A stretch of 41,785 bases of DNA, from positions 1 to 41,785 of the IMG/VR virus record IMGVR_UViG_3300046615_000228; one strand, given 5' to 3'. This stretch comes from a virus. Made by a program: the position numbers and the translations under genes. The notes beneath the pieces are model-generated. The model did no database searches, had not been told where the DNA came from, and saw only the letters and a program-made list of their open reading frames with translations. Positions 4,462-41,785 of the stretch are shown here, in pieces (within the stretch, counting starts at the first letter, position 1; each line of letters begins with the position of its first letter).

Positions 4462-4751
4462 AGGCGTCCAGTCCAGATGCGAAAGGCAGCGTTATCGGGG
4501 TCTTCCACAAAGCGGGTCTGCATCTTCTGGTCGCGCATGAACTGCGAGAACGTGATGCCCTTCTTCACGCACCAATCGTTAATGACCCAGCCATCAACGG
4601 ACATAGCCAGCTTGTCGTCCTTGCCGTTGCCAGCGCCGATAGAGCGCATGGCCGCGCAGTGGTCCGCCAGGGTGTCCAAGTCGCGCTTGTCCACGGTCGT
4701 CGCCAGAATTAGCTTGTCGTCGTCTTCGTGGTCTGCGATCAGATAGCCCAT
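4458..4751 (-). CDS. Hypothetical head-associated protein (97 aa)
   Basis: Internal ATG at 4751 preceded by GAGGGA. The longer track ORF (to 4883) would run through the capsid terminator and the capsid gene end. Sequence starts MGYLIADHEDDDKLILATT... Confidence 0.6.
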   Translation of the reverse strand: MGYLIADHEDDDKLILATTVDKRDLDTLADHCAAMRSIGAGNGKDDKLAMSVDGWVINDWCVKKGITFSQFMRDQKMQTRFVEDPDNAAFRIWTGRL

Positions 4752-4760
4752 GCGTCCCTC

Positions 4761-4794
4761 AAAATAGAAAGGGGCCGAGATTGCTCCCGGCCCC
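4761..4794 (-). terminator. Intrinsic terminator/attenuator just after the major capsid gene
   Basis: Minus strand reads GGGGCCG-GGAGCAATCT-CGGCCCC followed by TTTCTATTTT. It lies between the capsid stop (4831) and the next RBS. Confidence 0.6.
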
Positions 4795-4830
4795 TGCGCC
4801 CATCCGTGGGCAGTTCCTTCCGTGAAGCTA

Positions 4831-5799
4831 TTACGAACCGGTGACGGTGATATCGCGGATCGCGTACAGCGGCTTTTCGTCACGCACGATCAGCATGGAC
4901 TCCGAACGCACCTGCCAGTTCTTGGCATCACCCACGGTCGCCATCTGCTCCGACTCCTCACCACGCAGCACGCCAGAGGCGAGCTTGTCGGCGTCGATGA
5001 TGTAGATGGTGTCGTTCAGACCCACCACAGCCGTCGCCTGTACGCGGTTCGGGACGATCTTGGTAACGCCGAAGTCCGAGCGGTAGAAGTCGAACGCGAC
5101 ATTGACCACGGCCGCCTGCTTGCTTCCGACTTCGTTAGTACGCTGCACGTTGGCACCGAAGGACGAAATCTTGACCTTGTGGGCCGGGGAGCAGAGGACG
5201 ATGGAACCATCACCGCCGTTCTCGTAACAGCTCTGGATGCCATCCTTAAGCATCGTCTCGGTCAGGGCACGGTCAGTGCCGTTGACGGGGGCGGTGTTGG
5301 TGGTCGGATCAGGCGAGACGCCGGTAGCGCCGAACGAGTCCATCGTGAGGAAGCCGTACAGGCCACGGGTCTTGGCAGCAGCGCCAGAGGTGCCGGTGAC
5401 CGTAGCGCCGGAGCTGATATACGCAGCTTCCTTGTCGCGCTTCAGTTCCAGAAACTTCTTCATCTTGAGGCGCTTGGCCTCCGAGTCGCGGCCGTACTTC
5501 TTGACGCGCTCAGCCGTGTTCGACACCGAAACCGTGTCCTGGAAAATCTGGGTACGGTTGTTCAGCAGGGTCGGCTCGGTCTGCGCCGCGTAGGTGGCGT
5601 CCGCGCCTTCGATGGCGGCACGGGTGCCGTCCGGGGTGCGGTAGGTGTCGCGCTGCCATTCGGTGTAGACGTTGTCCACCGACTGACGCTCAATCATCGA
5701 GATAAGCGGGGCATCGGACGGGTTGAAGTTGTAAATCTGGTCGATTACGTCTTCTTTGACCTTCACAACGGAAGGGGTAATCAGGGTATTGGTCGGCAT
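4831..5799 (-). CDS. Major capsid protein (HK97 fold, SU10/BPP-1-like type)
   Basis: 322 aa, directly downstream of an acidic coiled-coil scaffold gene and followed by a strong hairpin terminator. The composition and length are typical of podoviral HK97-fold capsid proteins. Confidence 0.85.
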   Translation of the reverse strand: MPTNTLITPSVVKVKEDVIDQIYNFNPSDAPLISMIERQSVDNVYTEWQRDTYRTPDGTRAAIEGADATYAAQTEPTLLNNRTQIFQDTVSVSNTAERVKKYGRDSEAKRLKMKKFLELKRDKEAAYISSGATVTGTSGAAAKTRGLYGFLTMDSFGATGVSPDPTTNTAPVNGTDRALTETMLKDGIQSCYENGGDGSIVLCSPAHKVKISSFGANVQRTNEVGSKQAAVVNVAFDFYRSDFGVTKIVPNRVQATAVVGLNDTIYIIDADKLASGVLRGEESEQMATVGDAKNWQVRSESMLIVRDEKPLYAIRDITVTGS

Positions 5800-5811
5800 T
5801 GCTCTAGTCCT

Positions 5812-6747
5812 TTAGAGGAGGTTGGCGAGCGTGTTAACGGACGGGTTGGCTCGGTGAGCCTTCAATGCGTCCTGACGCTTCGCCAGTTGCGGGGGTTGGT
5901 TAGTGGTGCCGGGCTTGGTGACCTTCGGAAGCTGGGCGACAGGCTTCATTTCTGCCTTCTTCGCCAGCAACGCGTCATAGGCTTTCGCCTTGTGGATCAG
6001 TTTCCAAAACCCTTCCTGCACAAACGCCACGTCCACCTTTTCCGGGGTCAGGCCGAGGCCAGCCGCGTACTTGGCGTAATCGTTCAACGTGTCGTCGCTC
6101 CAACCGGGCAGGGTGTCCCGCAACGCCTTTTCGGTCGCATCGGCTTGCTGGGCGATATAGGCTTGGCGTTGCCGCTGCTGTTCGCTCTGCAAGTTGGCGA
6201 TGGCCGTCCGTGCCTGCTCTAACTGGCCCTTACGGTTCTCGTACAGTTCCTTTTGCGCGAGGTAATACGCGGCATCCTGCTGCGCCCATTCGATGGGGGG
6301 CGGGCTGCCGATCTGGCTGGCGTAGAAGTTCTCAAGCGCCTGGAGCTTCCCAAGCGAATCGTTCAACGCCTGTTCGTTCTGCTGACGATGTTCCTCGGCC
6401 TTCGCTTTGACGGCTTCCACCGCCTTACGTTCCTCGGCTACCGCCATCGTTTTCTTGGAGTAGTCAAACCCTTGCTGGGCCATATCGACCAACTCGGACT
6501 GCTTAAGGGTGACTTCCTTGCCATCGTGTTTGATGGTGAAAGTCGCCTCCTCTTGCTCGCCTTCGCCTTCCGATTCGCCTTCTTCTCCGGACTCGACTTC
6601 TTCGGACTCGCCGGATTCCTCGCCTTCCTCACCCGACTCGCCCAGCGCGTCCTCAACAACTTCCTCGCCGCCATCCATCAGCGCGACAAGATCGGTCATC
6701 GTGGCAACGCCTTCGGTCGGCTGGCTTTCGCCGTCACCAACGCTCAT
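5812..6747 (-). CDS. Scaffolding protein
   Basis: 311 aa from the ATG at 6747 (AAGGAAG RBS 5 nt upstream; the track start at 6753 is a GTG). Very acidic N-terminal tract (EEGEESGESEEVESGEEGESEGEGEQEE) followed by a long helical/coiled-coil region. Sits between the portal and capsid genes. Confidence 0.8.
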   Translation of the reverse strand: MSVGDGESQPTEGVATMTDLVALMDGGEEVVEDALGESGEEGEESGESEEVESGEEGESEGEGEQEEATFTIKHDGKEVTLKQSELVDMAQQGFDYSKKTMAVAEERKAVEAVKAKAEEHRQQNEQALNDSLGKLQALENFYASQIGSPPPIEWAQQDAAYYLAQKELYENRKGQLEQARTAIANLQSEQQRQRQAYIAQQADATEKALRDTLPGWSDDTLNDYAKYAAGLGLTPEKVDVAFVQEGFWKLIHKAKAYDALLAKKAEMKPVAQLPKVTKPGTTNQPPQLAKRQDALKAHRANPSVNTLANLL

Positions 6748-19243: not shown

Positions 19244-20568
19244 AAGTCGCGCTCGCTTGCCAAGTCGCCGAAGCGCATGGTTTCGGCCAGCCATGCGAGC
19301 TGGAACTGTCCGCAGGGGCCGTGTCGGTTCTTTTCGACGTTCAGCTCTGCGACGCCCTTTAGGTTGCTGTCCTCGCGGTAAACCTCGTCGCGGTACAGCA
19401 TCGCGATCACGTCTGCCTCACGCACAAGGTCGTCACTGTTGGCGAGGTCGGACATACCGGGACGCTTGTCCTCCCGGCTGTCCACGCCCTTGATTACCTG
19501 CGATAGCGCGATAACCGGCACGTCCAAGTCGCGGGCGATTTCTTTCAGGCCGCGCGCCACCTCTGAAACCTCGTCAACGCGGTTGCTCGCCTTCGGCACG
19601 CGGATGCGCTGGGCATAGTCGATATAGGCCGCCTTCATGCCGTGCTCGTGCTTCCACTGGCGCAAGGTGCGGCGGACTTCGTCCAGCGTCGGGGCGCTGC
19701 GGTCGTAGATGAAAAACGACTGCTTCTTGATCTGGACGATGGCGTTATTCAGGCGCGGCCATTCCTCGTCCTCCAGGTCGCCGCTGCGCATCTTCTCGGC
19801 GGCCACCCCGGAGGTGCGGGCAATCACTCGCTGCCCGACCTGCATGGCTGACTGCTCGCCAGAAATCATCCCGACGCAATGGCCCTGCTCTGCCGCGTAC
19901 TCGGCGAGGTTGATTAGAAGGGCCGTCTTGCCCATCGCGGGGCGCGCGCCAATCACGATCAGGTCGCCGCCGTGGAAGCCGCCAAGGCGCTTGTCCATGC
20001 GCTTAAACCCGGTCGGGATGCCGCGAATCTGCCCGCCCGACTGCCACGCCGACTGCATATCGGCGAATGCGTCCGTGACCGCATTGGTCAGCGTGTGCTC
20101 GTGGCGGTTCTCCTGCTTCGCCAGCGCCATAAGGGCACCGATAGCTGAGTCGATGATTTCGGACGATTCCCGGCGGTTCGGGTTGTAGCTGCTGTCCAGC
20201 AATTCCCCGGCAGCTTCAATGGCGGCCCGAAGCACAGACTTGTCGCGAACGATCCCCGCATAGGCGCTGATGTTCGCGGCGCTCGGCGTGGTGCTGGCAA
20301 GCTCGATCAGGTACGCACCACCCTGAACCTGCTCACTCAGCCCCTTGGACTCAAACCACTCGCCAAGCGTCACCGCGTCGAACGGCTGCGACTTGCGGTC
20401 AAGCTCGCAGATGGCGCGGTAGATGGCTTGATGATCGCGGCGGATGAAGTCGGCTTCGGCCAAGTTCACGCGGGCCAGCGCCTGGGGGGCCAGCATCAAG
20501 CCGCCAAGCACCGCTTGCTCGGCCTCCACGGATGCGGGCGGAACCCGCACGTTTTCCATACGGGTCAT
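19240..20568 (-). CDS. dnaB: Replicative DNA helicase (DnaB family)
   Basis: 442 aa. N-terminal PPASVEAEQAVLGGLML. Walker A GARPAMGKTA, Walker B-like AYIDYAQ. C-terminal NRHGPCG. Confidence 0.95.
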   Translation of the reverse strand: MTRMENVRVPPASVEAEQAVLGGLMLAPQALARVNLAEADFIRRDHQAIYRAICELDRKSQPFDAVTLGEWFESKGLSEQVQGGAYLIELASTTPSAANISAYAGIVRDKSVLRAAIEAAGELLDSSYNPNRRESSEIIDSAIGALMALAKQENRHEHTLTNAVTDAFADMQSAWQSGGQIRGIPTGFKRMDKRLGGFHGGDLIVIGARPAMGKTALLINLAEYAAEQGHCVGMISGEQSAMQVGQRVIARTSGVAAEKMRSGDLEDEEWPRLNNAIVQIKKQSFFIYDRSAPTLDEVRRTLRQWKHEHGMKAAYIDYAQRIRVPKASNRVDEVSEVARGLKEIARDLDVPVIALSQVIKGVDSREDKRPGMSDLANSDDLVREADVIAMLYRDEVYREDSNLKGVAELNVEKNRHGPCGQFQLAWLAETMRFGDLASERDF

Positions 20569-21472: not shown

Positions 21473-21837
21473 GGGCTAGACTCCGCAGAGGGGTTAACAG
21501 GGGATGCACATGAACAGTCCGCGCACCGCTGACGCGGCGGCGTTTGTCCAAGTGACAACGCCTCGCCTGCTGTGGCTTTTTGCGTATCTGCTGCTTGCGC
21601 TTGGCTACGTGCTTCTAGCTGTCGCAGGACTTCTTGCTCTATGGCTTTGGCAAGTGACGCCCGCTCAGCTCTCCGCATCCGCTCAAACACTTCTGCGAAC
21701 GGGTCCGGTGCAGTTGTATGCACTGGCCGGAGGAACGCTGTTCGGAGCCATTGGCTGGTTTTGGAAAGGCCAGCGGTGGCTATCGCAATGGCTGTACGGA
21801 CGCCTTGCCCGGTACGCCGTGAAAGACCTGTAGTCAT
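21469..21837 (-). CDS. Doubtful ORF (122 aa), antisense to 21504..21833
   Basis: ATGA overlaps at both ends fit the operon. However, third-codon positions are only about 50% GC (hand count) and the termini are Arg/Ser/Cys/Pro-rich. Confidence 0.3.
   Translation of the reverse strand: MTTGLSRRTGQGVRTAIAIATAGLSKTSQWLRTAFLRPVHTTAPDPFAEVFERMRRAERASLAKAIEQEVLRQLEARSQAQAADTQKATAGEALSLGQTPPRQRCADCSCASPVNPSAESSP
21504..21833 (+). CDS. Putative membrane protein (109 aa) encoded antisense within the early-right operon
   Basis: Two hydrophobic helices (LLWLFAYLLLALGYVLLAVAGLLALWLW; LYALAGGTLFGAIGWFW). AGGGG precedes the ATG. Codon-position GC of about 73/50/60% fits a coding frame better than the opposite strand does. 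Confidence 0.45.
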   Translation: MHMNSPRTADAAAFVQVTTPRLLWLFAYLLLALGYVLLAVAGLLALWLWQVTPAQLSASAQTLLRTGPVQLYALAGGTLFGAIGWFWKGQRWLSQWLYGRLARYAVKDL

Positions 21838-21983
21838 TGCCCACCCCGCTTGTGCTTCTCGTTCCGGTAGCGCTCTAGACGGGCCTGAGCTGCGGCGGCA
21901 TCGGCGCGCTCGTCATCGGTCAGCGCGAAGTCGTATTGCTCCCACGGCTCAGGCGTGCGGGCTGGGATGGTTAGGACGTTCAT
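21834..21983 (-). CDS. Hypothetical small protein (49 aa)
   Basis: ATG 21983 in an ATGA overlap with the CII-like stop. Starts MNVLTIPARTPEPWEQYDFALTDDE... Confidence 0.5.
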   Translation of the reverse strand: MNVLTIPARTPEPWEQYDFALTDDERADAAAAQARLERYRNEKHKRGGQ

Positions 21984-22363
21984 GCGGCGGCCCTCTTGGC
22001 CTCGGCCAGCTCGCGCTCCAGTCTCTGCACACGGCTCTCGCGGATGGACACCGGCTCCAGGCCGACTTGCGAGCAAAGCCACTGGATCGGGCAAAGCGAA
22101 CCCGTGACCATCATGAAATCGGCCAGTTGCTCGGCAGAGAAATTGCGCGGGCGAGAGTTAGCGCGGCGCGGCTCGCTGATCATCCGGCTGAAGCTGGAGT
22201 GGTCGATTCGGAGCGCGTCAGCGACGGCTTCCTGATCGAAGCCGGACCTGTTGATGGCATAGCGCAGGGATGAGCGGAAGGTGGGCAGCTTCGCCACGTC
22301 GTCCGGGTCTGCGTTGTGAGGCGTCCGAACCTCGCCGATCATCCTAAAGCTCTGCTGATTCAT
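21980..22363 (-). CDS. CII-like regulatory protein (phage 186 CII / CP76-type)
   Basis: ATG 22363 with GGAG 8 nt upstream. Pattern AVADALRIDHSSFSRMISEP....RNFSAEQLADFMMVTGSLCPIQWLCSQVG resembles the CP76 family. It is the second gene of the early-right operon. Confidence 0.6.
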   Translation of the reverse strand: MNQQSFRMIGEVRTPHNADPDDVAKLPTFRSSLRYAINRSGFDQEAVADALRIDHSSFSRMISEPRRANSRPRNFSAEQLADFMMVTGSLCPIQWLCSQVGLEPVSIRESRVQRLERELAEAKRAAA

Positions 22364-22403
22364 CACTTTGGCTCCGATTGGCTTTGCTTGGCTTTGTGTT
22401 TCA

Positions 22404-22434
22404 GGCGCAAAAAAAGCGCCGATCCTTTCGGACC
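22404..22434 (-). terminator. Possible tR1-like terminator/attenuator between the cro-like and CII-like genes
   Basis: Minus strand: GGTCC-GAAA-GGATC hairpin, then GGCGC-TTTTTTT-GCGCC. Lies in an 82-bp gap. Confidence 0.4.
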
Positions 22435-22445
22435 AGCGCAATACC

Positions 22446-22661
22446 TCACCCTTGGGGATCGTCGTTTTGCTTGGAGAAATCAGATGCCAGCAACAGAAGC
22501 CCGCGCTCTAGCGCCAGCTCGATCAGCCGTTCGCGGTACTTGTGGCTGGGGGAGCGCTCACCCGTCTCCCAGAAGCGGACGGCGTGACGTGTGCAGCCAA
22601 TCGCCTTGGCGATCTGTGCGCGGCTCATGCCGGACTGCTTTAGGCGTTGGATGGCTCTCAT
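22446..22661 (-). CDS. Cro-like HTH regulator (XRE family)
   Basis: 71 aa. LKQSGMSRAQIAKAIGCTRHAVRFWETGERSP. Divergent from the repressor gene. Confidence 0.85.
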   Translation of the reverse strand: MRAIQRLKQSGMSRAQIAKAIGCTRHAVRFWETGERSPSHKYRERLIELALERGLLLLASDFSKQNDDPQG

Positions 22662-22698
22662 GGTTACGGATCGTAACCGGAGCCGTTTTAAATGTCAA
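22662..22698 (-). promoter_or_regulatory. PR-like promoter with overlapping 17-bp operator, predicting a leaderless cro-like mRNA
   Basis: Minus strand TTGACA (22698-22693), 17-nt spacer, TACGAT (22675-22670). Palindrome GGTTACGGATCGTAACC (22662-22678) abuts the ATG at 22661. Extra half-sites CGTAACC (22704) and CGGTAAC (22719). Confidence 0.6.
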
Positions 22699-22776
22699 CA
22701 GCACGTAACCGACTTGATCGGTAACATTTTGTTCACTCACCTAGTTCTCACCAATCCTTCACCTAAGCCCCCCGTC

Positions 22777-23109
22777 ATGACTCAGCCAGTGCGACCCACC
22801 TTCGACAAGCTAAAGGCCAAGGCAAAGATGGATGCCACAGGCAAAAGCTATGCCGACATAGGTCGCGCGCTTGGCATTGAACGCCAGGCCGTGGGTCACT
22901 GGTTTAGGGATCGGGGGGAGCCGAACGTGCAACAAATGAAACTCATGGCCGCAGAACTGGGCTGCCACTGGCTAGAGCTTGTTAATGAGGATGCGATGGT
23001 CGTTTATGCGGAAGATGAGCGGGTCCGGCTGGAACGGATGCGCCATCTGACGCCGGAGGCGCTGGCGAAGCTGGACGCCTATCTGGAGGTCGAAGCCACC
23101 GCCAAGTAA
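22777..23109 (+). CDS. CI-like repressor, short form (HTH only, no S24 peptidase domain)
   Basis: 110 aa from ATG 22777. HTH KSYADIGRALGIERQAVGHWFRDRGEP. Followed by a strong terminator. Divergent from the cro-like gene. Confidence 0.75.
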   Translation: MTQPVRPTFDKLKAKAKMDATGKSYADIGRALGIERQAVGHWFRDRGEPNVQQMKLMAAELGCHWLELVNEDAMVVYAEDERVRLERMRHLTPEALAKLDAYLEVEATAK

Positions 23110-23230
23110 TTTGGTAACAGCTCGCGCGGTAACGCCAAGTTCCGCAAATCTTCACGCCGAAATAACGCCTTACCTTTTAAGGGGCCTAGTACAAAGGCTC
23201 TATTGACGCCATCCAATCTGAACAAGACAG

Positions 23231-23252
23231 CCCGGCCCCGGCCGGGTTTTTT
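23231..23252 (+). terminator. Intrinsic terminator after the repressor gene
   Basis: CCCGGC-CCCG-GCCGGG followed by TTTTTT. Confidence 0.75.
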
Positions 23253-23284
23253 GTGCCCGATGAAAAATAATCGGTTACAGGGTG

Positions 23285-23320
23285 TTGACATCCCCGTAAA
23301 TAGGGTTACAGTACGTAACC
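23285..23320 (+). promoter_or_regulatory. PL-like promoter with overlapping 17-bp operator
   Basis: TTGACA (23285-23290), 16-nt spacer, TACAGT (23307-23312). Palindrome GGTTACAGTACGTAACC (23304-23320). Same layout as the PR-like promoter. Confidence 0.6.
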
Positions 23321-23377
23321 ATAAGCCGCACAGAACACCGCCCCACCACCGGGGCGAGGCGGCAAAGGGAGACGGGG

Positions 23378-24103
23378 ATGGCTCTAATCGAAATCAAGCA
23401 TCGCTACTCGGGAGCCGTGATCTTCGGCGGCGAGTACGCGACGGTTCTGGCGTGCTTGCTTGCGGCGGTTGCCAGCGGCGCGAACCTGTACGGCGCGGAC
23501 CTGTACGGCGCGAACCTGTACGGCGCGGACCTGTACGGCGCGGACCTGTACGGCGCGGACCTGGGCGGCGCGAACCTGTACGGCGCGGACCTGTACGGCG
23601 CGAACCTGTACGGCGCGGACCTGGGCGGCGCGAACCTGCGCGGCGCGAACCTGTACGGCGCGGACCTGGGCGGCGCGAACCTGCGCGGCGCGAACCTGTA
23701 CGGCGCGGACCTGGGCGGCGCGAACCTGTACGGCGCGGACCTGTACGGCGCGGACCTGGGCGAAAAGCCCGAACAACAGCTTTGGTTCGTGCAAACCCGA
23801 ATCCTCCCCTCTGACGGGGACGTGATCGGCTGGAAGAAGTGCATGGGTGGCGTGCTCGTCAAGCTGCGCATTCCCGCCGAGGCCAAGCGTTCTCACGCCT
23901 TCGGCCGCAAGTGCCGCGCTGAGTACGTCGAAGTTCTGGAAGTCATCGGCGCGGATGTTGGTGTTACGGACGCGCATGGCCCAAAGACCGAATACCGCGC
24001 CGGCGAAATCGTGCGCCCCGATTCGTTCTGCGAGAACTGGCAGGACGAGTGCAGCAACGGAATCCACTTTTTCATCACTCGCGCCGAAGCGGAGGCTTAC
24101 TGA
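23378..24103 (+). CDS. Pentapeptide-repeat protein (19 perfect A[ND]L[YGR]G units) with a C-terminal globular domain
   Basis: 241 aa. GANLY/GADLY/GADLG/GANLR units from residue 34 to 128. C-terminal domain ...GWKKCMGGVLVKLRIPAEAKR...CSNGIHFFITRAEAEAY. First gene downstream of the PL-like promoter. Confidence 0.9.
   Translation: MALIEIKHRYSGAVIFGGEYATVLACLLAAVASGANLYGADLYGANLYGADLYGADLYGADLGGANLYGADLYGANLYGADLGGANLRGANLYGADLGGANLRGANLYGADLGGANLYGADLYGADLGEKPEQQLWFVQTRILPSDGDVIGWKKCMGGVLVKLRIPAEAKRSHAFGRKCRAEYVEVLEVIGADVGVTDAHGPKTEYRAGEIVRPDSFCENWQDECSNGIHFFITRAEAEAY
23477..23761 (+). repeat. 19 tandem 15-bp units GGCGCG[A/G]ACCTG[TAC/GGC/CGC]
   Basis: Read directly. All synonymous positions are invariant across units. 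There is also a higher-order 45-bp repeat (…GANLYGADLGGANLR x2). Confidence 0.95.
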
Positions 24104-24104
24104 T

Positions 24105-24254
24105 ATGGCACCGATTCTCGATGGCACGGCCGATACCGGTAGCTGGCAGACCAGCCGCCTCCGCGCGATCCCCTACGAACTCCGCGTGGCGATCCTGTCC
24201 GCGATCCTGCTGGGTGAGGCGATGGTCTACGCCGCGCTGCGGGGTGGCCTGTGA
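24105..24254 (+). CDS. Small membrane protein (49 aa)
   Basis: ATG 2 nt after the upstream stop. C-terminal TMD VAILSAILLGEAMVYAAL. Its stop overlaps the next GTG (GTGA). Confidence 0.5.
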   Translation: MAPILDGTADTGSWQTSRLRAIPYELRVAILSAILLGEAMVYAALRGGL

Positions 24255-24562
24255 GCGCGCCGGTTGATGTGCTGGCGGTGATGGGGGCCTTCCTGATGTT
24301 CGGCGGAACCATCGGACCGCGCGAAGTCATCCCGCACTGGAATGTGCCGCGATCGACCGGCCTGATCGCCAACCGCGCCAATGAAAAGACCCCGAAGGTC
24401 TTGCGCGCCCTGCAACGCGCCGAGCGCGATGGCGTGGTGGTGTGTGTCGGGACCGGAGCCGAACACAACCGCGCATGGAACAAGAGCGCAGCAGCCACGG
24501 CCGAGCGGTACTGGAAGCTAACCGATGCCGCCCTCGCCCGCGTCACCGGAGAGCAGGCATGA
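24251..24562 (+). CDS. Hypothetical protein (103 aa)
   Basis: GTG start coupled by GTGA. N-terminal hydrophobic segment, then a possible winged-helix motif (KTPKVLRALQRAERDGVVVCV). Confidence 0.6.
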   Translation: MSAPVDVLAVMGAFLMFGGTIGPREVIPHWNVPRSTGLIANRANEKTPKVLRALQRAERDGVVVCVGTGAEHNRAWNKSAAATAERYWKLTDAALARVTGEQA

Positions 24563-24801
24563 GCCGCGTCTCCGCACTGACCCACAACGCGCCGTGCCTG
24601 TACGCGCCGGAGCCGGTCGCCAGCATCTTTGACGACGTGGACTGCGTGCGCGACGTGCTGAACGGCTCGGGCATCCCCGATTACCTCGCCTGCGCCCTTG
24701 CTGACGTGGCGGTGGCTGGGTGGACGCCTGAAGCGTGGATGGACGCCCTGCGCGACGTGCGCCGCCATGTGCAGCCGATCTTGTCGAGGGCTGACGCATG
24801 A
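24559..24801 (+). CDS. Hypothetical protein (80 aa)
   Basis: ATG 24559 in an ATGA overlap. Starts MSRVSALTHNAPCLYAPEP... Confidence 0.6.
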   Translation: MSRVSALTHNAPCLYAPEPVASIFDDVDCVRDVLNGSGIPDYLACALADVAVAGWTPEAWMDALRDVRRHVQPILSRADA

Positions 24802-25010
24802 ACTTCCTCCGCAATCGCCGCAAGACGCTCCCCCGCATCAACGTGGGCAACTGGATCGAAGCCGGGTGCTGCGTGTCGTGTTGCTCGCTGGTCACGGGAT
24901 GGCTGTTCGCGTTCGCCACTGGCAATGAGTGGCTAGCCGTTCCCGCCCTGATCCCCACGCTGCTGACGATTGCCGCCATCTACAAATACGACTGGAGGAC
25001 AGAGATATGA
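24798..25010 (+). CDS. Small membrane protein (70 aa, 2 TMD)
   Basis: ATGA-coupled. TMDs WIEAGCCVSCCSLVTGWLFAFA and LAVPALIPTLLTIAAIY. Confidence 0.6.
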   Translation: MNFLRNRRKTLPRINVGNWIEAGCCVSCCSLVTGWLFAFATGNEWLAVPALIPTLLTIAAIYKYDWRTEI

Positions 25011-25237
25011 GCCACCACCAACTGCTCGCAATTCTCGGCCAAACCACCGTGCAGGAAATGATGCGCGAGAGGGAGCGCGAGGAATGGGGCGTCGCAGTCG
25101 CAGACCCCGAGGCCGATATGCCGTGGGACGGGATTCTGGCGGATGAAGACCGCGAGCCGCCGACCACGGTCGGAATCTTCGACGCAATCCCGATGCCGCG
25201 CGATCCGTATCGCGAGCTGGGAGCCGATGCCGAATGA
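25007..25237 (+). CDS. Hypothetical acidic protein (76 aa)
   Basis: ATG 25007 in an ATGA overlap. Starts MSHHQLLAILGQTTVQEMMRERE... Confidence 0.6.
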   Translation: MSHHQLLAILGQTTVQEMMREREREEWGVAVADPEADMPWDGILADEDREPPTTVGIFDAIPMPRDPYRELGADAE

Positions 25238-25458
25238 ACGCACAACTCGATGCCCGCCTTTTGGCAATCGGAATTGACGCAACAACGCGAACTGCAGGAC
25301 GCGCCCGGCGAAAGCATCAGCACGGTGGCGCGCTGACCGTGACCCTGCTGCTGGTCGCATTGGCCGCCGCGTATTTCGGCGTTCGCAGTCTCCCCACCTC
25401 GCCAGCACCCAACACGGCCGCCCCCTCGGCCGTGGCTGGCGGGGATTTTATCAAGTGA
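25234..25458 (+). CDS. Small membrane protein (74 aa)
   Basis: ATGA-coupled. TMD ALTVTLLLVALAAAYFGV. Confidence 0.55.
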   Translation: MNAQLDARLLAIGIDATTRTAGRARRKHQHGGALTVTLLLVALAAAYFGVRSLPTSPAPNTAAPSAVAGGDFIK

Positions 25459-25865
25459 GTGTGATCCGCTCCGCCGCCGAGTGGTCGCGCTGGTGCGCCG
25501 TGACAGTGGCGCAGGGCTTCCCGCTGGACGTTTCAGCGAAGCCCTACAAGCCGACCAGGAGCAGCGAGCAAAACGCCTATCTGTTCGGCGTTTGCTATCC
25601 GCCAATCGCCGGAGCAATGGGTTACAGCGTCGAGGACATTCACGAATACATGCTTGGCCGCCACTTTGGCTGGCGTGACGTGAAGGTTCCCAAGACGCCG
25701 CGCAACCCGGAAGGACTGGCATCAGAACCGAACCGAACCACCACCCGCAACGAGGAAGGCAAGCGCAGCGTTCTGAACAAAGCCGAGTTTTCCGCCTTCG
25801 TTGAAACCGTTCACCGCATCGCCGCGCAGGCCGGGGTTTTCATCCCTGACGCGCTGGCAGCCTAA
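25455..25865 (+). CDS. NinB/Orf-like recombination mediator (tentative)
   Basis: 136 aa, GTGA-coupled. R-S-x-x-Q-N-x-x-x-(W/F) motif (TRSSEQNAYLFG) and C-terminal ...AEFSAFVETVHRIAAQAGV resemble lambda NinB. Precedes the annealing protein. Confidence 0.5.
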   Translation: MSVIRSAAEWSRWCAVTVAQGFPLDVSAKPYKPTRSSEQNAYLFGVCYPPIAGAMGYSVEDIHEYMLGRHFGWRDVKVPKTPRNPEGLASEPNRTTTRNEEGKRSVLNKAEFSAFVETVHRIAAQAGVFIPDALAA

Positions 25866-25876
25866 AGGAGAGTCCC

Positions 25877-26701
25877 GTGAACCAAGTCGTGCAATTCCAG
25901 CCCGCCGTCGAGAACTACGGCAGCCGATCCCTCACCGCCGCAGACGTTCGCGCTCAGGTCAATCTGATGCAGGACGTGATGCAGGAGGTGATGAAGGACG
26001 GCACCCATTACGGGACCATTCCCGGCACCAAGTCCAAGAGTCTCTACAAGGCTGGCGCTGAGAAGCTTATGGCGACCTTCCGCCTTGCCGGTGACCCGGA
26101 GGTGGAGGACTTGGGCGGCAATGGCGAAATCCATTACCGCGTCAAGGTCCGGCTTACCTCGTCCAGTGGCACGTTCATCGGAGCAGGCGTGGGCGAGTGC
26201 AGCAGCCAGGAGGATAAGTACGCATGGCGAGCTGCGATATGTGATGACGAGTTCGATGACACGCCCGAGAATCGCCGCCGCGTGAAATACGCCAAGTGGC
26301 AGGGCAAGGTCGAGAAGAAGAAGCAGGTTCGCACCAACCCGGCCGACGTGGCTAACACCATCCTCAAGATGGCGAAGAAGCGCGCGCAGGTTGACGCGGT
26401 GATTACCTGCACGGCCGCCTCTGACATTTTCACGCAGGACATTGAGGACTTGCCGGAGGAAGTGGTTGCGGAAATCGTCGGCCAGCATTCCAAGCCGAGC
26501 AGGCACGCCAGCCCGGCCCCGGCCGATAGCCCGGAACGTGACGCGGCCATCAAGGAAGCGCAGGACGTGGCCTCCCTCGGCGTGGAGAAGTTCCGCGCGT
26601 TTTGGGCCGGTCTTCCGAAGGAAAAGCGCCTGTTGATCGCGGACAAGATGGAAGCGTTCAAGGCAGCAGCCGAGCGCGCGGACGCTACGGAGGTCGAGTA
26701 A
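25877..26701 (+). CDS. Single-strand annealing protein (recombinase partner of the YqaJ exonuclease)
   Basis: 274 aa. GTG start with an AAAGGAGAG RBS. Conserved-looking YGTIPGTKSKSLYKAGAEKL and NTILKMAKKRAQVDAVI. Synteny with the exonuclease. The exact SSAP family was not determined. Confidence 0.7.
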   Translation: MNQVVQFQPAVENYGSRSLTAADVRAQVNLMQDVMQEVMKDGTHYGTIPGTKSKSLYKAGAEKLMATFRLAGDPEVEDLGGNGEIHYRVKVRLTSSSGTFIGAGVGECSSQEDKYAWRAAICDDEFDDTPENRRRVKYAKWQGKVEKKKQVRTNPADVANTILKMAKKRAQVDAVITCTAASDIFTQDIEDLPEEVVAEIVGQHSKPSRHASPAPADSPERDAAIKEAQDVASLGVEKFRAFWAGLPKEKRLLIADKMEAFKAAAERADATEVE

Positions 26702-27198
26702 TGGAACTGACTGTTGACCGGGTGTTTGAGGCCCTGACCTTCGCGCCGGACACGGGCAAATTCTATTGGATCAAGCCAAGCAAGTACCACAGCGAAAAGA
26801 CGCTAAGTGAGGCCGGTTGCGCACAGCGTAATCACAACGGAAAGAATTATTGGGTTATTCGCTTTGATGGTCGCGCAATCAAGCGCGGAAGGCTTGTGTT
26901 TTTTGTGCTGAATGGACGGTGGCCAACGCCATGCCTTGACCACATCAATGGCGACTCCCTTGATGATCGCCCTGAAAACCTGCGCGAAGCCACGATTGCC
27001 GAGAACGCCTGGAACCACAAAAAGCGAGCCCGGCGCATTGCCCTTCCAATGGGGGTTCGTTTGGCTGGTTCCGGCAGATTTCAGGCGCGAATCGCACATG
27101 AGAATCGGCAGATTCACCTTGGCTGCTATGACACACCGGAAGAAGCCCGCGCCGTTTACCTCGCCAAGAGAAAGGAGCTTTACCGTGAATTTGCATGA
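26701..27198 (+). CDS. HNH (HNH_3) plus AP2-domain homing endonuclease, copy 2
   Basis: LDHINGDSLDDRPENLREATIAENAWN plus the AP2-like GVRLAGSGRFQARIAHENRQIHLGCYDTPEEARAVY. TAATG overlap with the SSAP stop. Inserted between the SSAP and exonuclease genes. Confidence 0.85.
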   Translation: MELTVDRVFEALTFAPDTGKFYWIKPSKYHSEKTLSEAGCAQRNHNGKNYWVIRFDGRAIKRGRLVFFVLNGRWPTPCLDHINGDSLDDRPENLREATIAENAWNHKKRARRIALPMGVRLAGSGRFQARIAHENRQIHLGCYDTPEEARAVYLAKRKELYREFA

Positions 27199-27814
27199 AC
27201 CACAGAGGTCGGAAGCTTGGTTTGACGCCCGGTGCGGAAAGCTCACCGGCTCCCGTTTCGCGGACGTGATGAACGTTCTCAAAGACGGCACGCCAGGAGC
27301 CAACCGCCGCAACTTGGTCGCGCTACTGGCCGTCGAGCGCCTTACCCGCAACACCGTGGACACGTATCAAAACGACGCCATGCGTCGCGGAACGGAGCTG
27401 GAGCCGGAAGCGCGGGCGGCCTTTGAGGCTGACACGGGCGAGATTGTGGCGGAGGTGGGATTCATCCCCCACCCGGTTCTGGATTACGTAGGCGTGTCGC
27501 CCGATGGCCTGCTTGGCAATGACGGCATGGTCGAACTGAAGTGCCCGGCCAGCATGGCGAAGCACTTGGATGCCCTTCGCAACGATGACCACGCGAAGGA
27601 ATACAAGTGGCAGCTACAGGGCCAGCTTTGGGTCGCGCATCGCAAATGGGTCAAGGCGGTGAGCTATGACCCGCGATTCCCCGAACACTTGCGCCTCGCC
27701 ATCTGTCACGTCGAGCGCGACGAAAAGGCCATCGCCGAATTGGCCGCCGAGTGTGAAAAGGCAAACGGCGAAATCGAACAAATCCTATCCACCCTGCAAC
27801 AGAAGGCAGCGTAA
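27185..27814 (+). CDS. YqaJ/lambda-Exo-like PD-(D/E)XK exonuclease
   Basis: QRSEAWFDARCGKLTGSRFADVM, GTELEPEARAAF, SPDGL...GMVELKCP, and the QLQGQLWV motif. GTG 27185 (or TTG 27191) overlaps the HNH end. Confidence 0.85.
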   Translation: MNLHEPQRSEAWFDARCGKLTGSRFADVMNVLKDGTPGANRRNLVALLAVERLTRNTVDTYQNDAMRRGTELEPEARAAFEADTGEIVAEVGFIPHPVLDYVGVSPDGLLGNDGMVELKCPASMAKHLDALRNDDHAKEYKWQLQGQLWVAHRKWVKAVSYDPRFPEHLRLAICHVERDEKAIAELAAECEKANGEIEQILSTLQQKAA

Positions 27815-31474: not shown

Positions 31475-31689
31475 GTGACCTATGGCTTGAACCCGCCGAG
31501 GTCGTGGAACTGACCGCTAAGAAGCGGTGGGCGGCGCAGTGTCGCGAGCTGGCGGCAATGGGCGTACCGTTCATGCCGAACGCCGTAGGGCGGCCCCTGG
31601 TCGAACGTGCGGCGGTGTGCAAGGCGACCGCGAAGCCGAAGGCCAAGCGCGGCCCTAACTGGGATGCCTTGAGGAAGGACGCGGCCTAA
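31471..31689 (+). CDS. DUF4224-like protein, probable excisionase / directionality factor
   Basis: LEPAEVVELTAKKRWAAQCRELAAMGVPFMPNAVGRPLV pattern. ATGA-coupled upstream and TAATG-coupled to the integrase. Confidence 0.65.
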   Translation: MSDLWLEPAEVVELTAKKRWAAQCRELAAMGVPFMPNAVGRPLVERAAVCKATAKPKAKRGPNWDALRKDAA

Positions 31690-32675
31690 TGGGACGCAAG
31701 CGCACCCGCGACAAGCATCTGCCCGCGAACATGCAGCGCAAGCACGGGGCGTACTACTTCGTGAAGGCGGGCAAGTGGAATCCGCTGGCGAAGGACTACC
31801 CCTCGGCGCTGGTGAAATATGCCGCGCTGATCGGTGCCCCGCCGAAGGTCCGCACGGTGAAGGATGCGGTGTGGCACTACATAGAGGCCAGTACCGGACG
31901 ACTCGCGGACAAGACGCTGGCGGGCTACCGGATTTCAGCGGCCAACGTCTGCACGGTGTTTGGCGGAATGGCGCTGGAAGACGTGACGGCGGCGGACGTG
32001 TATCGCTACCTCACCGAAAAGGGCAACGTACAGGCAAACCGCGACCGCGCCCTGTTGTCTGCCGCCTACAGCGAGGCCCGCCGCATCGGCGCGTTTCCGA
32101 AGGCATCCGACGATCCCACCAAGGGGCTGGAGTACCGCAACCCGGAAAAGCCGCGCACGCGCTATGTGACGGATGCGGAGCTGGACGCGATCATTGCGGC
32201 GGCCAGTCCCAAGCTGGGCTGCATCGCCCGCTTCATCGAACTGACCGGGATGCGCCAGGGCGATGCGCTGGGCGTGAAGCTGGCGGACCTAGACGACGAC
32301 GGCTTCACGTATTGGAACAGCAAGGGCAAGAAATGGCAGGGGCTGGAGTGGTCGCCGGAGCTAACCGCCACGGTCGAGGACGCCAAACGCCTATGGCGTC
32401 GGTTCGGGCGGGAGTGGCTGTTTGAGTCGAACCCGAAAGGCAAGCACAAGGAGCGAGGAATCGGCCCGTACACGCCGAGCGGACTGCGCGCCCTATGGCG
32501 GGTAGCGCGGACCAAGGCGGGGCTTACAGACGTGCGCCTGCACGATCTGCGCGCTAAGGCGGGCAGTGACGTAGGGAGCAACGAGGACGCGCAACGGCTG
32601 CTTGGGCACGCCGATGGCAAGGTGACGCGCCGACACTACAGGCGCAAGGTGGAGCGGTCGAAGCCTGTCCGCTGA
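31689..32675 (+). CDS. int: Tyrosine integrase
   Basis: 328 aa. R...HDLRAKAGSDV...LLGHADGKVTRRHY catalytic signature. N-terminal SAM-like domain. Confidence 0.95.
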   Translation: MGRKRTRDKHLPANMQRKHGAYYFVKAGKWNPLAKDYPSALVKYAALIGAPPKVRTVKDAVWHYIEASTGRLADKTLAGYRISAANVCTVFGGMALEDVTAADVYRYLTEKGNVQANRDRALLSAAYSEARRIGAFPKASDDPTKGLEYRNPEKPRTRYVTDAELDAIIAAASPKLGCIARFIELTGMRQGDALGVKLADLDDDGFTYWNSKGKKWQGLEWSPELTATVEDAKRLWRRFGREWLFESNPKGKHKERGIGPYTPSGLRALWRVARTKAGLTDVRLHDLRAKAGSDVGSNEDAQRLLGHADGKVTRRHYRRKVERSKPVR

Positions 32676-40343: not shown

Positions 40344-41704
40344 TAATTGCTGCTCCTGACGAGCTTGCCGTTAGCGTCTCGGGTCCAGACAGTGCCGCCC
40401 CCGCCGCCCTGAGTAATGGACGTGTTGGGGCGATCCTGCGACTCCGCATACTTCTTATTCAGCCGCTTAATCTGCTGAAGCGCAGTCATTCGGGTTTCAA
40501 CAGGAAGCGTGGGGTTTGCGAGGTCGCCGGCCATTTGCTTATAGAGCTGCACGTCCTTATCCGACTGCGGACCCTGCATTCGCGGCATGGACGAGGTGAG
40601 CTGACCCGCAATCGTTTGCAACGCAGCGATGGCCTTTGCGCCCGTCGTGGACTGGCCGAAAACAGCCGCGCCAGCGTCAACGAGGTTCCCGACAGAGCTT
40701 CCGGTGGAAAGAGGAAGCAAACGCTCCGCCTCATCCAACAACGTCAGCGCGCGATTAGCGTCTACCGCCTTGGTTGCCACCGCCGAATCACGCTCACTCC
40801 GCGCCTTTGCGGCAGCTTCAGCGGCAGCCTTCTTGGCTGCGTTTTCGGCCTCAATGTCGCCGCGTTGCGGAAGGTTGCGCAACTCAACGGCTTGCTTGGC
40901 CGCCGCCTCGGCTGCCGCAGTTTCGGCCGCACTTGGATTGCGCTGCGGAACTGGAGCAGCGGGCGGAGCCTGTCCGCCGACCATCATCGGCGCACCCTGC
41001 TGCGTGCGCATCCAGCTCTCTACCTGATCCTGCGGAACGCCCGCCTTCGTCATCTGGTTGGCAAATTCGGCGATCTGCTGATCGTCCATGCGCGGAGGCG
41101 GGGACGCTGCGCCAGCAGACGGACCAATCCCCGTGGTTTGGCCGATCTGGCCGCGCCCAGTGGTGACCAGATACGGCAACTGGCCCGGCTCATTGATGAG
41201 CTGCGTGCTAGGCGATGCCGCCTTGCCGGTATCAATGACCTGTCCGCCACGGGTGACGATGCCAATGTTCCCGTTTGCAAGGATTTGCGTGCTCTGGACG
41301 TTTCCGCCTCCGCTGTTCCCACCCAACGCCTGCGCCAGCTTCTGGATATTCGGCGCAAACGAGGGGTCCCACTGACCCGGAGCCGGGATGCCCAACGCCT
41401 GCGCCTGCTGCGCGAGCTGCGGATAGGCCTGTGCCTTCTGCTCATCGGGCAGGGCATCGAACGCGGTCGCGTATTCGCCGAGGCGTGCGCGGGCGTTGTC
41501 GTCCATGCCCTTGAAGTGGCTTTCCGCGTCATACGCAGCCGCAGGACTCACGCCCGCCATCTGCGCAATCAAGCCCTGGCGCTGGTCGCGCGGAGCCTGC
41601 ATGGACTGCTGCACCAAGCCAGCAAGGCGCGACTGCTGCCCACGTTGACGGCCTTCCTCGGACTTCTGCCCGATGTAATCCATCATTCCGAGAATGTCAG
41701 CCAT
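40343..41704 (-). CDS. Internal virion / DNA-ejection protein, the second of three (P22 gp20-sized)
   Basis: 453 aa, Gln/Ala/Gly-rich with helical segments. Coupled to the flanking ejection-protein genes. Confidence 0.75.
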   Translation of the reverse strand: MADILGMMDYIGQKSEEGRQRGQQSRLAGLVQQSMQAPRDQRQGLIAQMAGVSPAAAYDAESHFKGMDDNARARLGEYATAFDALPDEQKAQAYPQLAQQAQALGIPAPGQWDPSFAPNIQKLAQALGGNSGGGNVQSTQILANGNIGIVTRGGQVIDTGKAASPSTQLINEPGQLPYLVTTGRGQIGQTTGIGPSAGAASPPPRMDDQQIAEFANQMTKAGVPQDQVESWMRTQQGAPMMVGGQAPPAAPVPQRNPSAAETAAAEAAAKQAVELRNLPQRGDIEAENAAKKAAAEAAAKARSERDSAVATKAVDANRALTLLDEAERLLPLSTGSSVGNLVDAGAAVFGQSTTGAKAIAALQTIAGQLTSSMPRMQGPQSDKDVQLYKQMAGDLANPTLPVETRMTALQQIKRLNKKYAESQDRPNTSITQGGGGGTVWTRDANGKLVRSSN

Positions 41705-41785
41705 CAGGAATAGCCCCCTGCGCCGTAGGCGTTCTGCCAGTTAGCGCCGCTCGCCGTTGTGGGTGCCGCCGCATACGGGCTGCCG
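41659..41785. repeat. Terminal overlap copy 2 (identical to 1-127)
   Basis: Read directly. Confidence 0.9.

Follow-up and report, generated by a model that had tools for sequence, protein, structure and literature searches.

A tandem 15-bp array in a pentapeptide-repeat gene

The DNA analysed here, called the window below, comprises positions 1 to 41,785 of the IMG/VR virus record IMGVR_UViG_3300046615_000228. Our subject is a gene on its plus strand whose product, the repeat protein, consists of a long run of pentapeptide repeats followed by a C-terminal domain of the Pfam family DUF5758. The gene and its parts are as follows.

23378..24103, plus strand: pentapeptide-repeat and DUF5758 gene; open reading frame (ORF) with ATG start, 241 amino acids (aa), exact match in a public protein collection
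23378..23476, plus strand: N-terminal cap, residues 1-33, predicted to seal the start of the beta-helix; AlphaFold2 predicted local distance difference test score (pLDDT) above 93, family-conserved
23477..23761, plus strand: array of 19 x 15 bp, encoding a predicted beta-helix of about 4.75 coils; Tandem Repeats Finder, unit parsing, AlphaFold2 and Foldseek
23596..23728, plus strand: recent duplication of a 45-bp (three-unit) block within the array; longest internal exact repeat and unit order
23762..23803, plus strand: short linker, residues 129-142, predicted to be flexible; pLDDT below 50 at residues 136-140
23804..24091, plus strand: DUF5758 domain, residues 143-238; Pfam PF19062, 75.7 bits against a cutoff of 26.9

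An initial annotation of this DNA had placed the start of the feature at 23285, which is the -35 element of a promoter; the ORF itself begins at 23378. The exact protein in the public collection is a product of a JGI metagenome.

Tandem Repeats Finder reported a single array at 23476..23758 with a period of 15, 18.9 copies and zero indels. When read in the frame GGC-GCG-[A/G]AC-CTG-[TAC/GGC/CGC], the array contains 19 units at 23477..23761. In the frame that begins with alanine, A[N/D]L[Y/G/R]G is matched perfectly by 18 units (23480..23749), and a 19th reads ADLGE. Only four distinct 15-mers occur, in 7, 5, 4 and 2 copies. Unit parsing confirmed that two codons vary and that synonymous sites do not, since variation is confined to unit positions 4, 10 and 11 and all five third-codon positions are invariant. 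To judge codon bias, we used the 14 long ORFs of the same window as a reference, in which GCG accounts for 39% of Ala, CTG for 48% of Leu and GGC for 62% of Gly codons. Given this usage, the probability of a single codon per amino-acid type over the array's 95 codons is about 1e-24, so codon bias does not explain the uniformity. The block duplication is visible as two exact 88-bp copies (23596 and 23641) offset by 45 bp, in which the unit order ANLYG-ADLGG-ANLRG is repeated.

The window is a complete temperate phage genome. Its ends form an exact 127-bp direct repeat (1-127 = 41659-41785), and this terminal overlap therefore points to a closed circle of about 41,658 bp, assembled with k=127. 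A twin contig from another sample (L004; 41,776 bp) starts at window position 20022; there were 0 differences over the 14,082 bp compared, and the whole repeat gene is identical base for base. Because the k-mer of 127 is longer than the 88-bp longest internal repeat, and because the second contig is identical, mis-assembly is an unlikely origin of the array. When the exact array flanks were searched in two metagenome DNA scans, no near-identical relatives of the phage were found, and the 90% identity cluster of the repeat protein has one member, present on two contigs.

Predicted fold of the repeat protein and its C-terminal domain

The Pfam model Pentapeptide (PF00805) matched the protein in 4 stretches covering residues of about 35-130 (8.9e-49, 163 bits against a cutoff of 20.2), and all PHROG matches were to families of unknown function. 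In the AlphaFold2 model, which was built from 64 homologs and reached a pLDDT of 88.6, the cap consists of a beta-hairpin (strands 2-8 and 14-20) and a helix (23-32), after which short strands are predicted at intervals of 5 residues between residues 35 and 127, with a pLDDT of about 90-95. A Foldseek search of the full model against the PDB returned pentapeptide beta-helices only (designed solenoids, Np275, MfpA, Qnr and AlbG), with a probability of 1.0. The repeats can thus be predicted with high confidence to form a right-handed quadrilateral beta-helix in which each coil takes up four units, with a globular domain after it; on this point Pfam, AlphaFold2 and Foldseek all agree with the initial annotation. 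Its globular domain of about 115 aa corresponds to a post-array part of 113 aa, which is made up of the linker and a 96-aa DUF5758 match. We also considered whether the N-terminal VLAC motif could mark a lipoprotein or signal peptide and ruled this out by inspection, as there is no hydrophobic h-region, the cysteine is not conserved in the family and the segment forms the cap helix.

Consensus-designed beta-solenoids (PDB 4yc5 and its relatives) and Np275/Np276 were the best structural matches, at 48-56% identity across the repeat. Like the window array, these have near-perfect A(D/N)LxG repeats, but the designed and cyanobacterial solenoids lack both the cap-linker-DUF5758 layout and the phage context.

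A hidden Markov model search, as proposed in the initial annotation for the C-terminal part, identified DUF5758 above its cutoff (E 3.3e-21), the match covering positions 5-105 of a profile of 105. Only three more residues follow before the end of the protein, the last of them a conserved aromatic residue, and most homologs terminate in EAExY or a close variant, with an aromatic residue at or a few residues from the C-terminus. Near-invariant positions of the domain are G147, W152, K153, R171, S172, R177, K178, C179, R180 and Y206, together with E224, C225, G228, H230 and F231. Modelled by itself, the domain is predicted to be beta-rich (pLDDT 84.6, predicted template modelling score 0.76). 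Neither a comparison of this model with PDB structures (best E 0.77) nor one of the family profile with PDB sequences (best E 0.6) gave a match, which leaves the conserved domain of the family without a fold relative in the PDB. A single-sequence PDB search had suggested a relation to DARPin/ankyrin proteins (up to 2.7e-8); we rejected these matches as spurious because they were amplified by the repeats, each stretch was non-significant and they disappeared with the family profile. One segment of the C-terminal domain (window 23792-24100), SHAFGRKCRAEYVEVLEVIGADVGVTDAHG, resembles one consensus ankyrin repeat by chance. Among the BFVD matches to the full model were giant-virus proteins, aligned over about 105-125 residues with a root-mean-square deviation of 2-4 Å and 20-30% identity, including 'MORN repeat' proteins of the Klosneuvirus group and a 126-aa mimivirus protein. 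DUF5758 may hence also occur in eukaryotic giant viruses, although these matches do not show which part of the query was aligned.

The repeat gene at the head of a predicted early operon

The surroundings of the repeat gene contain the following features.

21980..22441, minus strand: gene for a CII-like regulator, placed second in the leftward operon on the replication side; match to PHROG 101 (CII-like transcriptional activator), E 4.8e-5
22446..22661, minus strand: cro-like small helix-turn-helix (HTH) gene, first gene of the leftward operon; Pfam HTH_3 5.1e-7, PHROG repressor and HTH families
22662..22710, no strand: putative operator pair of the leftward promoter; exact GGTTAC-N5-GTAACC at 22662-22678 over the -10 element, degenerate copy at 22694-22710 over the -35 element
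22670..22698, minus strand: PR-like promoter of sigma-70 type, TTGACA, 17 nt, TACGAT; promoter scan, 10/12 matches
22777..23109, plus strand: cI-like HTH_3 repressor gene between both promoters; Pfam HTH_3 2.8e-8, PHROG repressor families; gene call taken from the twin contig with a shift of 20,021 bp
23229..23255, plus strand: intrinsic-terminator-like hairpin and T-run closing the repressor transcript; scan, 8-bp stem with 6 GC pairs, then TTTTTGTG
23273..23320, no strand: putative operator pair of the PL-like promoter; degenerate site at 23273-23289 over the -35 element, exact palindrome GGTTACAGTACGTAACC at 23304-23320 over the -10 element
23285..23312, plus strand: PL-like promoter of sigma-70 type, TTGACA, 16 nt, TACAGT; promoter scan, 10/12 matches
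23338..23371, plus strand: 5' leader containing a GC-rich hairpin at 23338-23357 and, at 23366-23371, the ribosome-binding site AGGGAG; read from the sequence, hairpin flagged in a scan
24106..27814, plus strand: further genes of this operon, closely spaced (small ORFs, NinB-like, PHROG 10048, HNH, YqaJ/RecE-like exonuclease)
25455-25865, plus strand: NinB-like gene
25877-26701, plus strand: PHROG 10048 protein gene
31689-32675, plus strand: integrase gene, beyond the recombination genes

Two sigma-70-like promoters with 10/12 matches were found in the region 21800-24600, one leftward and one rightward. The 17-bp palindrome GGTTAC-N5-GTAACC occurs with zero mismatches exactly twice in the 41.8-kb window, once per divergent promoter. 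Indeed, the two promoter regions are mirror images of each other, 82-86% complementary across 21-22 nt, and this similarity relates the leftward operator pair to the region 23271-23325 (repeats I1 and I2). On the rightward side AGGGAG sits 6 nt 5' of the ATG of the repeat gene, and the next ORF begins 3 nt past its stop codon; the leftward side also carries a gene for a DnaB helicase. As in a lambda-type PL operon, the putative operators are common to the divergent PR-like promoter and the genes run into recombination functions and the integrase. These sequence matches support the view, already put forward in the initial annotation, that the repeat gene is the first gene of a repressor-controlled early operon that resembles the PL arm of lambda, in a layout that mirrors the lambda immunity region.

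The leader measures 65 nt from the PL-like promoter to the start codon, and its GC-rich hairpin (CCGCCCCACCACCGGGGCGA, 23338-23357) could be a candidate element for RNA stability or regulation. The cI-like repressor, an HTH_3 protein of 110 aa, lacks an S24 peptidase domain, and induction may therefore need an antirepressor instead of RecA-stimulated self-cleavage.

A large family found in early regions of distant phages

With an E value below 1e-5, more than 7,610 proteins matched the repeat protein; each of the best 120 combined Pentapeptide with DUF5758 in 203-314 aa. The C-terminal domain alone yielded 3,238 cluster representatives at 50% identity. In almost all of the 150 best representatives DUF5758 lies at the protein end or a few residues from it, and of the 149 best, Pentapeptide is present in 118, its place being taken by leucine-rich repeats (LRR) in 3. 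Relatives were located in 98 genome loci, belonging to Proteobacteria, Actinobacteria, Firmicutes, Saccharibacteria, Planctomycetes and others, and in 477 IMG/VR viral contigs. The cultured phages that carry DUF5758 comprise 152 cluster E mycobacteriophages, a Rhizobium phage, a T7-like Ralstonia phage, a Thiohalocapsa phage and two Synechococcus phages.

The homologs of known genomic context resemble the window gene in both architecture and position. EVB67_031 of Rhizobium phage RHph_TM3_3_14B (68% identity to the window protein), HIBIKMCM_00009 of the T7-like Ralstonia phage BOESR1 (50%) and the cluster E genes (about 44-49%; Kostya gp59, Porky gp57, Icee gp58) encode the same two Pfam domains in the same order and lie in an early region; whereas the window gene is first in its operon, these homologs are second to fifth. 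In the Rhizobium phage, the gene follows 'repressor protein C' at a distance of a few small genes and an integrase gene ends the operon, while in BOESR1 it belongs to the early region ahead of the RNA polymerase gene. In eight cluster E mycobacteriophages, the homolog is the third gene of an operon divergent from the immunity repressor. On a phage-sized contig (L086), it heads an operon divergent from a YdaS-like HTH gene and has RecT downstream, and in a Burkholderia multivorans prophage (L087) it has a cI-S24 repressor on one side and genes for ERF, YqaJ and NinB on the other. Crude neighbour scans with Pfam around the homologs of about 42 loci gave the following counts.

ORFs within 2.3 kb upstream: HTH_3 (9), HTH_31 (8), Peptidase_S24 (3), YdaS (2), Tad3 (1), Mu Gam (1)
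ORFs within 2.9 kb downstream: ERF (5), YqaJ (3), NinB (2), RecT (1), integrase (5)

The Tad3 gene encodes a type I Thoeris inhibitor (PF25185, E 9.4e-34), and at least one homolog therefore lies beside a known anti-defence gene. At one further locus (L044), two Pentapeptide plus DUF5758 genes stand in tandem, one recovered as the query match and the other as a downstream neighbour.

A comparable gene exists in P22-like phages (ST104 orf19, and orf232 of phages L and ST64T). Like the window gene, it carries about 15-22 units and belongs to the PL operon, where it adjoins ral; it differs in that DUF5758 is absent and its C-terminal part is unrelated, with no Pfam match. The combination of Pentapeptide and DUF5758 is already catalogued in Pfam, and phage genomes annotate it as 'pentapeptide repeat protein'. 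What appears not to have been described before as general features are the immediate-early position across distant phages, the family-wide concerted evolution of the array and the excess of surface-changing differences (see below).

Given this position, the gene could serve the prophage by superinfection exclusion or defence of the lysogen, and not the lytic programme. It adjoins the immunity region, a frequent site for exclusion genes in temperate phages; sieB and gene 17 of ST104 lie near the pentapeptide-repeat gene there, and the described defence protein Hailong contains pentapeptide repeats (PMC13586616). Nevertheless, we consider a benefit to the prophage very unlikely. The promoter of the repeat gene has the same operators as the lytic cro-side promoter, and the gene should therefore be repressed in the lysogen, while the terminator separates it from the repressor transcript. 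In addition, it matched no PADLOC model, and the BOESR1 homolog sits in the early region of a T7-like phage.

Concerted evolution and turnover of the array

The initial annotation had attributed the synonymous invariance of the array to very recent expansion, concerted evolution or selection on the DNA repeat itself. We therefore analysed the codons of 123 arrays of at least 8 units. In about 80% of them, Ala, Leu and Gly are each encoded by one codon throughout, as compared to 2.5-2.9 effective codons in the C-terminal domains of the same genes. The codon that is fixed differs between arrays:

Dominant Ala codon, number of arrays: GCC 56, GCG 45, GCT 17, GCA 5
Dominant Leu codon, number of arrays: CTG 74, CTC 35, CTT 7, TTG 6, CTA 1
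Dominant Gly codon, number of arrays: GGC 49, GGT 37, GGG 20, GGA 7

One-codon arrays in which the codon is specific to the array are the classical signature of concerted evolution, and this signature is found family-wide. Of the three, concerted evolution with recent turnover of units is thus the explanation that the data favour. Since one array has settled on other synonymous codons than the next, selection is unlikely to act on the DNA repeat as such, and we rejected selection on a specific DNA motif within it for the same reason. The same data bear on the notion that the array matters as DNA, as a protein-binding or recombination site, or else is a mis-assembled low-complexity stretch. Its DNA is extremely regular, and assemblies often break at such arrays. 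However, the fixed synonymous bases vary by lineage, no DNA motif is conserved beyond what the peptide demands, no array departs from the reading frame and purifying selection acts on the codons of the buried Ala and Leu. As for mis-assembly, hundreds of homologs have the same architecture, besides the two independent identical contigs described above. We therefore regard this explanation, in either form, as extremely improbable.

Array length proved variable, as the initial annotation had anticipated for slippage of an in-frame 15-bp unit. Across the family arrays, copy number ranges from 5 to 76 (median about 20-22), and close relatives differ by whole units. The closest relative of the window gene (P0002) has 13 units as compared to 19, with 38 synonymous and 19 non-synonymous codon differences among 113 in the C-terminal flank. 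Two loci from Xanthobacter metagenome-assembled genomes, L022 (about 4922-5684) and L030 (about 4625-5855), have N- and C-terminal flanks that are about 95% identical and arrays that are wholly different, namely 13 units of ANLSG/ADLRS versus about 50 units of VDLTG/VNLRY/ANLTG; in most units of the longer array, Val takes the place of the buried Ala. Within 90% identity clusters, alleles with identical flanks likewise differ by whole units (290/210, 207/247/267/292, 299/269/214, 267/252/207 and 229/259 aa). In the literature, copy-number changes are mentioned as asides only: phages L and ST64T, which are >99.9% identical, differ by one 15-bp unit (PMC8022706), and near-identical Caulobacter phages differ by a 375-bp deletion, that is 25 x 15 bp (PMC11053796). 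These isolate cases document that whole-unit copy-number events are real. We conclude that the array evolves by slippage or unequal recombination, and that gain, loss and replacement of units are much faster than divergence of the flanks. The longest array, of 59-76 units depending on the counting mode, was found in an isolate genome, Adlercreutzia shanghongiae R25 contig9 (L037, match 5001-6059), and is made of only three different 15-mers.

Divergent synonymous sites together with a fixed copy number were found solely in the degenerate cluster E sub-lineage. There, unlike in the window array, 19/19 units of the main run are distinct in DNA, with 55% pairwise identity, and the gene measures 846 bp in 7/8 phages, so that array length is fixed. 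Apparent copy-number differences among cluster E mycobacteriophages were rejected as artefacts of regular-expression matching on degenerate repeats.

Next to its length, the surface of the array changes. Among the units of 122 homogenised arrays, the ratio of non-synonymous to synonymous differences (pN/pS) was 0.6 at the buried Ala and 0.1 at the buried Leu codon, as compared to 7.0, 6.9 and 3.8 at the three exposed codons. The differences that survive homogenisation are therefore mainly amino-acid changes on the surface. This pattern is suggestive of purifying selection on the buried Ala and Leu codons and of an amino-acid-changing excess at exposed positions.

Alternatively, the beta-helix might be a neutral spacer, a rigid and soluble stalk that drifts by slippage while all function lies in DUF5758, as an enzyme or as a binder of nucleic acid or a ligand. 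Several properties of the array would fit such a stalk: its copy number varies widely with no preference for whole coils (24, 36, 29 and 21 arrays for copy number modulo 4), there is no face-specific pattern along the helix, the signal at lag 4 being trivial, and whole arrays are replaced between close relatives. DUF5758 would fit as well, being strongly conserved, C-terminal in almost all representatives and also joined to other solenoid repeats. Yet drift combined with homogenisation does not predict an exposed pN/pS of 4-7 with synonymous differences nearly absent. Moreover, since a pentapeptide array is retained in 118 of the 149 best representatives and the family median is about 20-22 units, something must maintain helix size, and the degenerate mycobacteriophage arrays are conserved in both length and sequence. 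A purely neutral spacer hence seems unlikely to us.

Possible roles of the repeat protein

According to the initial annotation, the beta-helix could mimic B-DNA and thereby block restriction, BREX or another DNA-sensing defence, or act on gyrase in the manner of Qnr and MfpA. The predicted right-handed quadrilateral beta-helix is indeed the fold of Qnr, MfpA, AlbG and McbG, and the window copy is acidic: the 95 residues of its array carry a net charge of -9, or about -0.47 per unit, and so place it at the acidic end of the family. Genomic position also fits, given the predicted immediate-early expression of the window gene, the P22-like gene adjoining ral in the early left operon, and the Ralstonia homolog in the early region before the RNA polymerase gene, where T7 keeps ocr. 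Judging from its sequence, the window protein would share with Ocr and ArdA an early expression from a mobile element and an acidic surface. However, no sequence or fold relation to Ocr or ArdA was present among the Foldseek PDB, Pfam and NCBIfam matches, the charge density of the window array is lower than theirs and its charge is not conserved in the family. Across 119 family arrays, net charge ranged from -24 to +7 with a median of -3, 22% being zero or positive, Arg was the second commonest exposed residue and exposed residues were swapped wholesale between close relatives.

Comparison with the gyrase-binding proteins points in the same direction. Their NCBIfam models scored far below cutoff (MfpA 42.1 bits versus 360, Qnr 19-33 bits versus 240-500). 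With pentapeptide-repeat geometry, about 4.75 coils are roughly 23 Å long, and a monomer of the window protein would thus offer a helix of only that length, as estimated from this general geometry. In Qnr/MfpA-type proteins, the repeats are degenerate and position-specific, loops are present and head-to-head dimers form through a C-terminal helix (PMC10886550), whereas the window protein has near-perfect repeats, and its model contains neither the dimerisation helix nor the Qnr-type loops A and B, the C-terminus being occupied by the globular DUF5758 tail. DUF5758 is, besides, also fused to LRR repeats, which are generic protein-binding scaffolds, and the pentapeptide-repeat proteins McbG and QnrB gave no inhibition of BREX when tested (PMC7261183). 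With the fold speaking weakly in its favour, the Qnr/MfpA cutoffs not reached and the array charge not conserved, we find a DNA-mimic function, be it anti-restriction or gyrase-directed, quite improbable. In particular, the window protein is unlikely to be a gyrase protector of the Qnr/MfpA type; a role of the window copy as a polyanionic DNA decoy is possible, with an acidic charge that the family does not conserve.

From its gene context, the repeat protein is a reasonable candidate for a host-takeover or counter-defence factor. We propose, at roughly even odds (a probability of about 0.5 for the joint claim), that it binds a component of the host or of its defences, with DUF5758 as the conserved working or anchoring module and the beta-helix as a fast-changing surface or steric rod. 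The protein would accordingly be an immediate-early accessory factor that works by binding, either in host takeover or in counter-defence. Within DUF5758, candidate site residues could be a basic patch of near-invariant Arg and Lys residues and a cluster of Cys179, Cys225 and His230, while the beta-helix would provide a rapidly evolving interaction surface or act sterically as a rod.

Several points weigh against this binding role. Neither the full protein nor its C-terminal domain matched PADLOC-DB v2 at E up to 0.1. In our literature search DUF5758 appeared in no paper and no family member had a measured function; pentapeptide repeats in connection with anti-defence, DNA mimicry, mycobacteriophages or anti-restriction came up as incidental mentions only. 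For the window phage there is a single array allele, in two contigs, and short-read collapse may explain part of the copy-number variants elsewhere, as many IMG/VR contigs end in the array. The use of pN/pS among units is non-standard under concerted evolution, and the ratios may be distorted by turnover at the level of units. The cluster E array is degenerate and of fixed length, and rapid turnover, though seen in most lineages, is therefore not required for function. Finally, the promoter and operator assignments are consensus matches.

A more far-reaching version would make Pentapeptide plus DUF5758 a widespread and so far unrecognised class of immediate-early counter-defence or host-takeover proteins, in which 15-bp slippage remodels the helix and DUF5758 is an effector with a new fold. 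The array would then be a built-in repeat-cassette device with a logic like that of variation in LRR proteins, variable lymphocyte receptors (VLR) or diversity-generating retroelements (DGR), and unit turnover would continually alter the exposed face and the length of the beta-helix. This generalisation remains doubtful in our judgement.

Whichever partner the proposed binding involves, the family is large, extends across many bacterial phyla and, in the window, stands at the predicted start of a repressor-controlled early operon, a highly informative position in a temperate phage. Its evolutionary signature, which is typical of a protein in a molecular arms race, is uncommon among structural repeats and has four parts: homogenisation within arrays, array-specific codons, gain, loss or replacement of whole units, and an excess of amino-acid changes at exposed positions. 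If the arms-race reading is true, many new anti-defence or host-takeover activities would be expected in the family, which would also offer a natural example of tunable beta-solenoid length. As homologs exist in cultured, tractable phages, most clearly in cluster E but also in the Rhizobium and Ralstonia phages, the role is directly testable.

Further observations on related assemblies and on the phage genome

Many IMG/VR contigs end inside the array (L100-L102, L116, L132, L143, L148, L150, L157, L167, L173 and L175). In contigs broken in this way, the match begins at contig base 1-17 and at query residue of about 33-60. The pentapeptide array is thus a recurrent breakpoint in short-read phage assemblies.

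In the window, an HNH_3 endonuclease gene at 26701-27198 (gene call from the twin contig) is inserted between the genes for the PHROG 10048 protein and the YqaJ-like exonuclease, and a second HNH gene lies further downstream of it.

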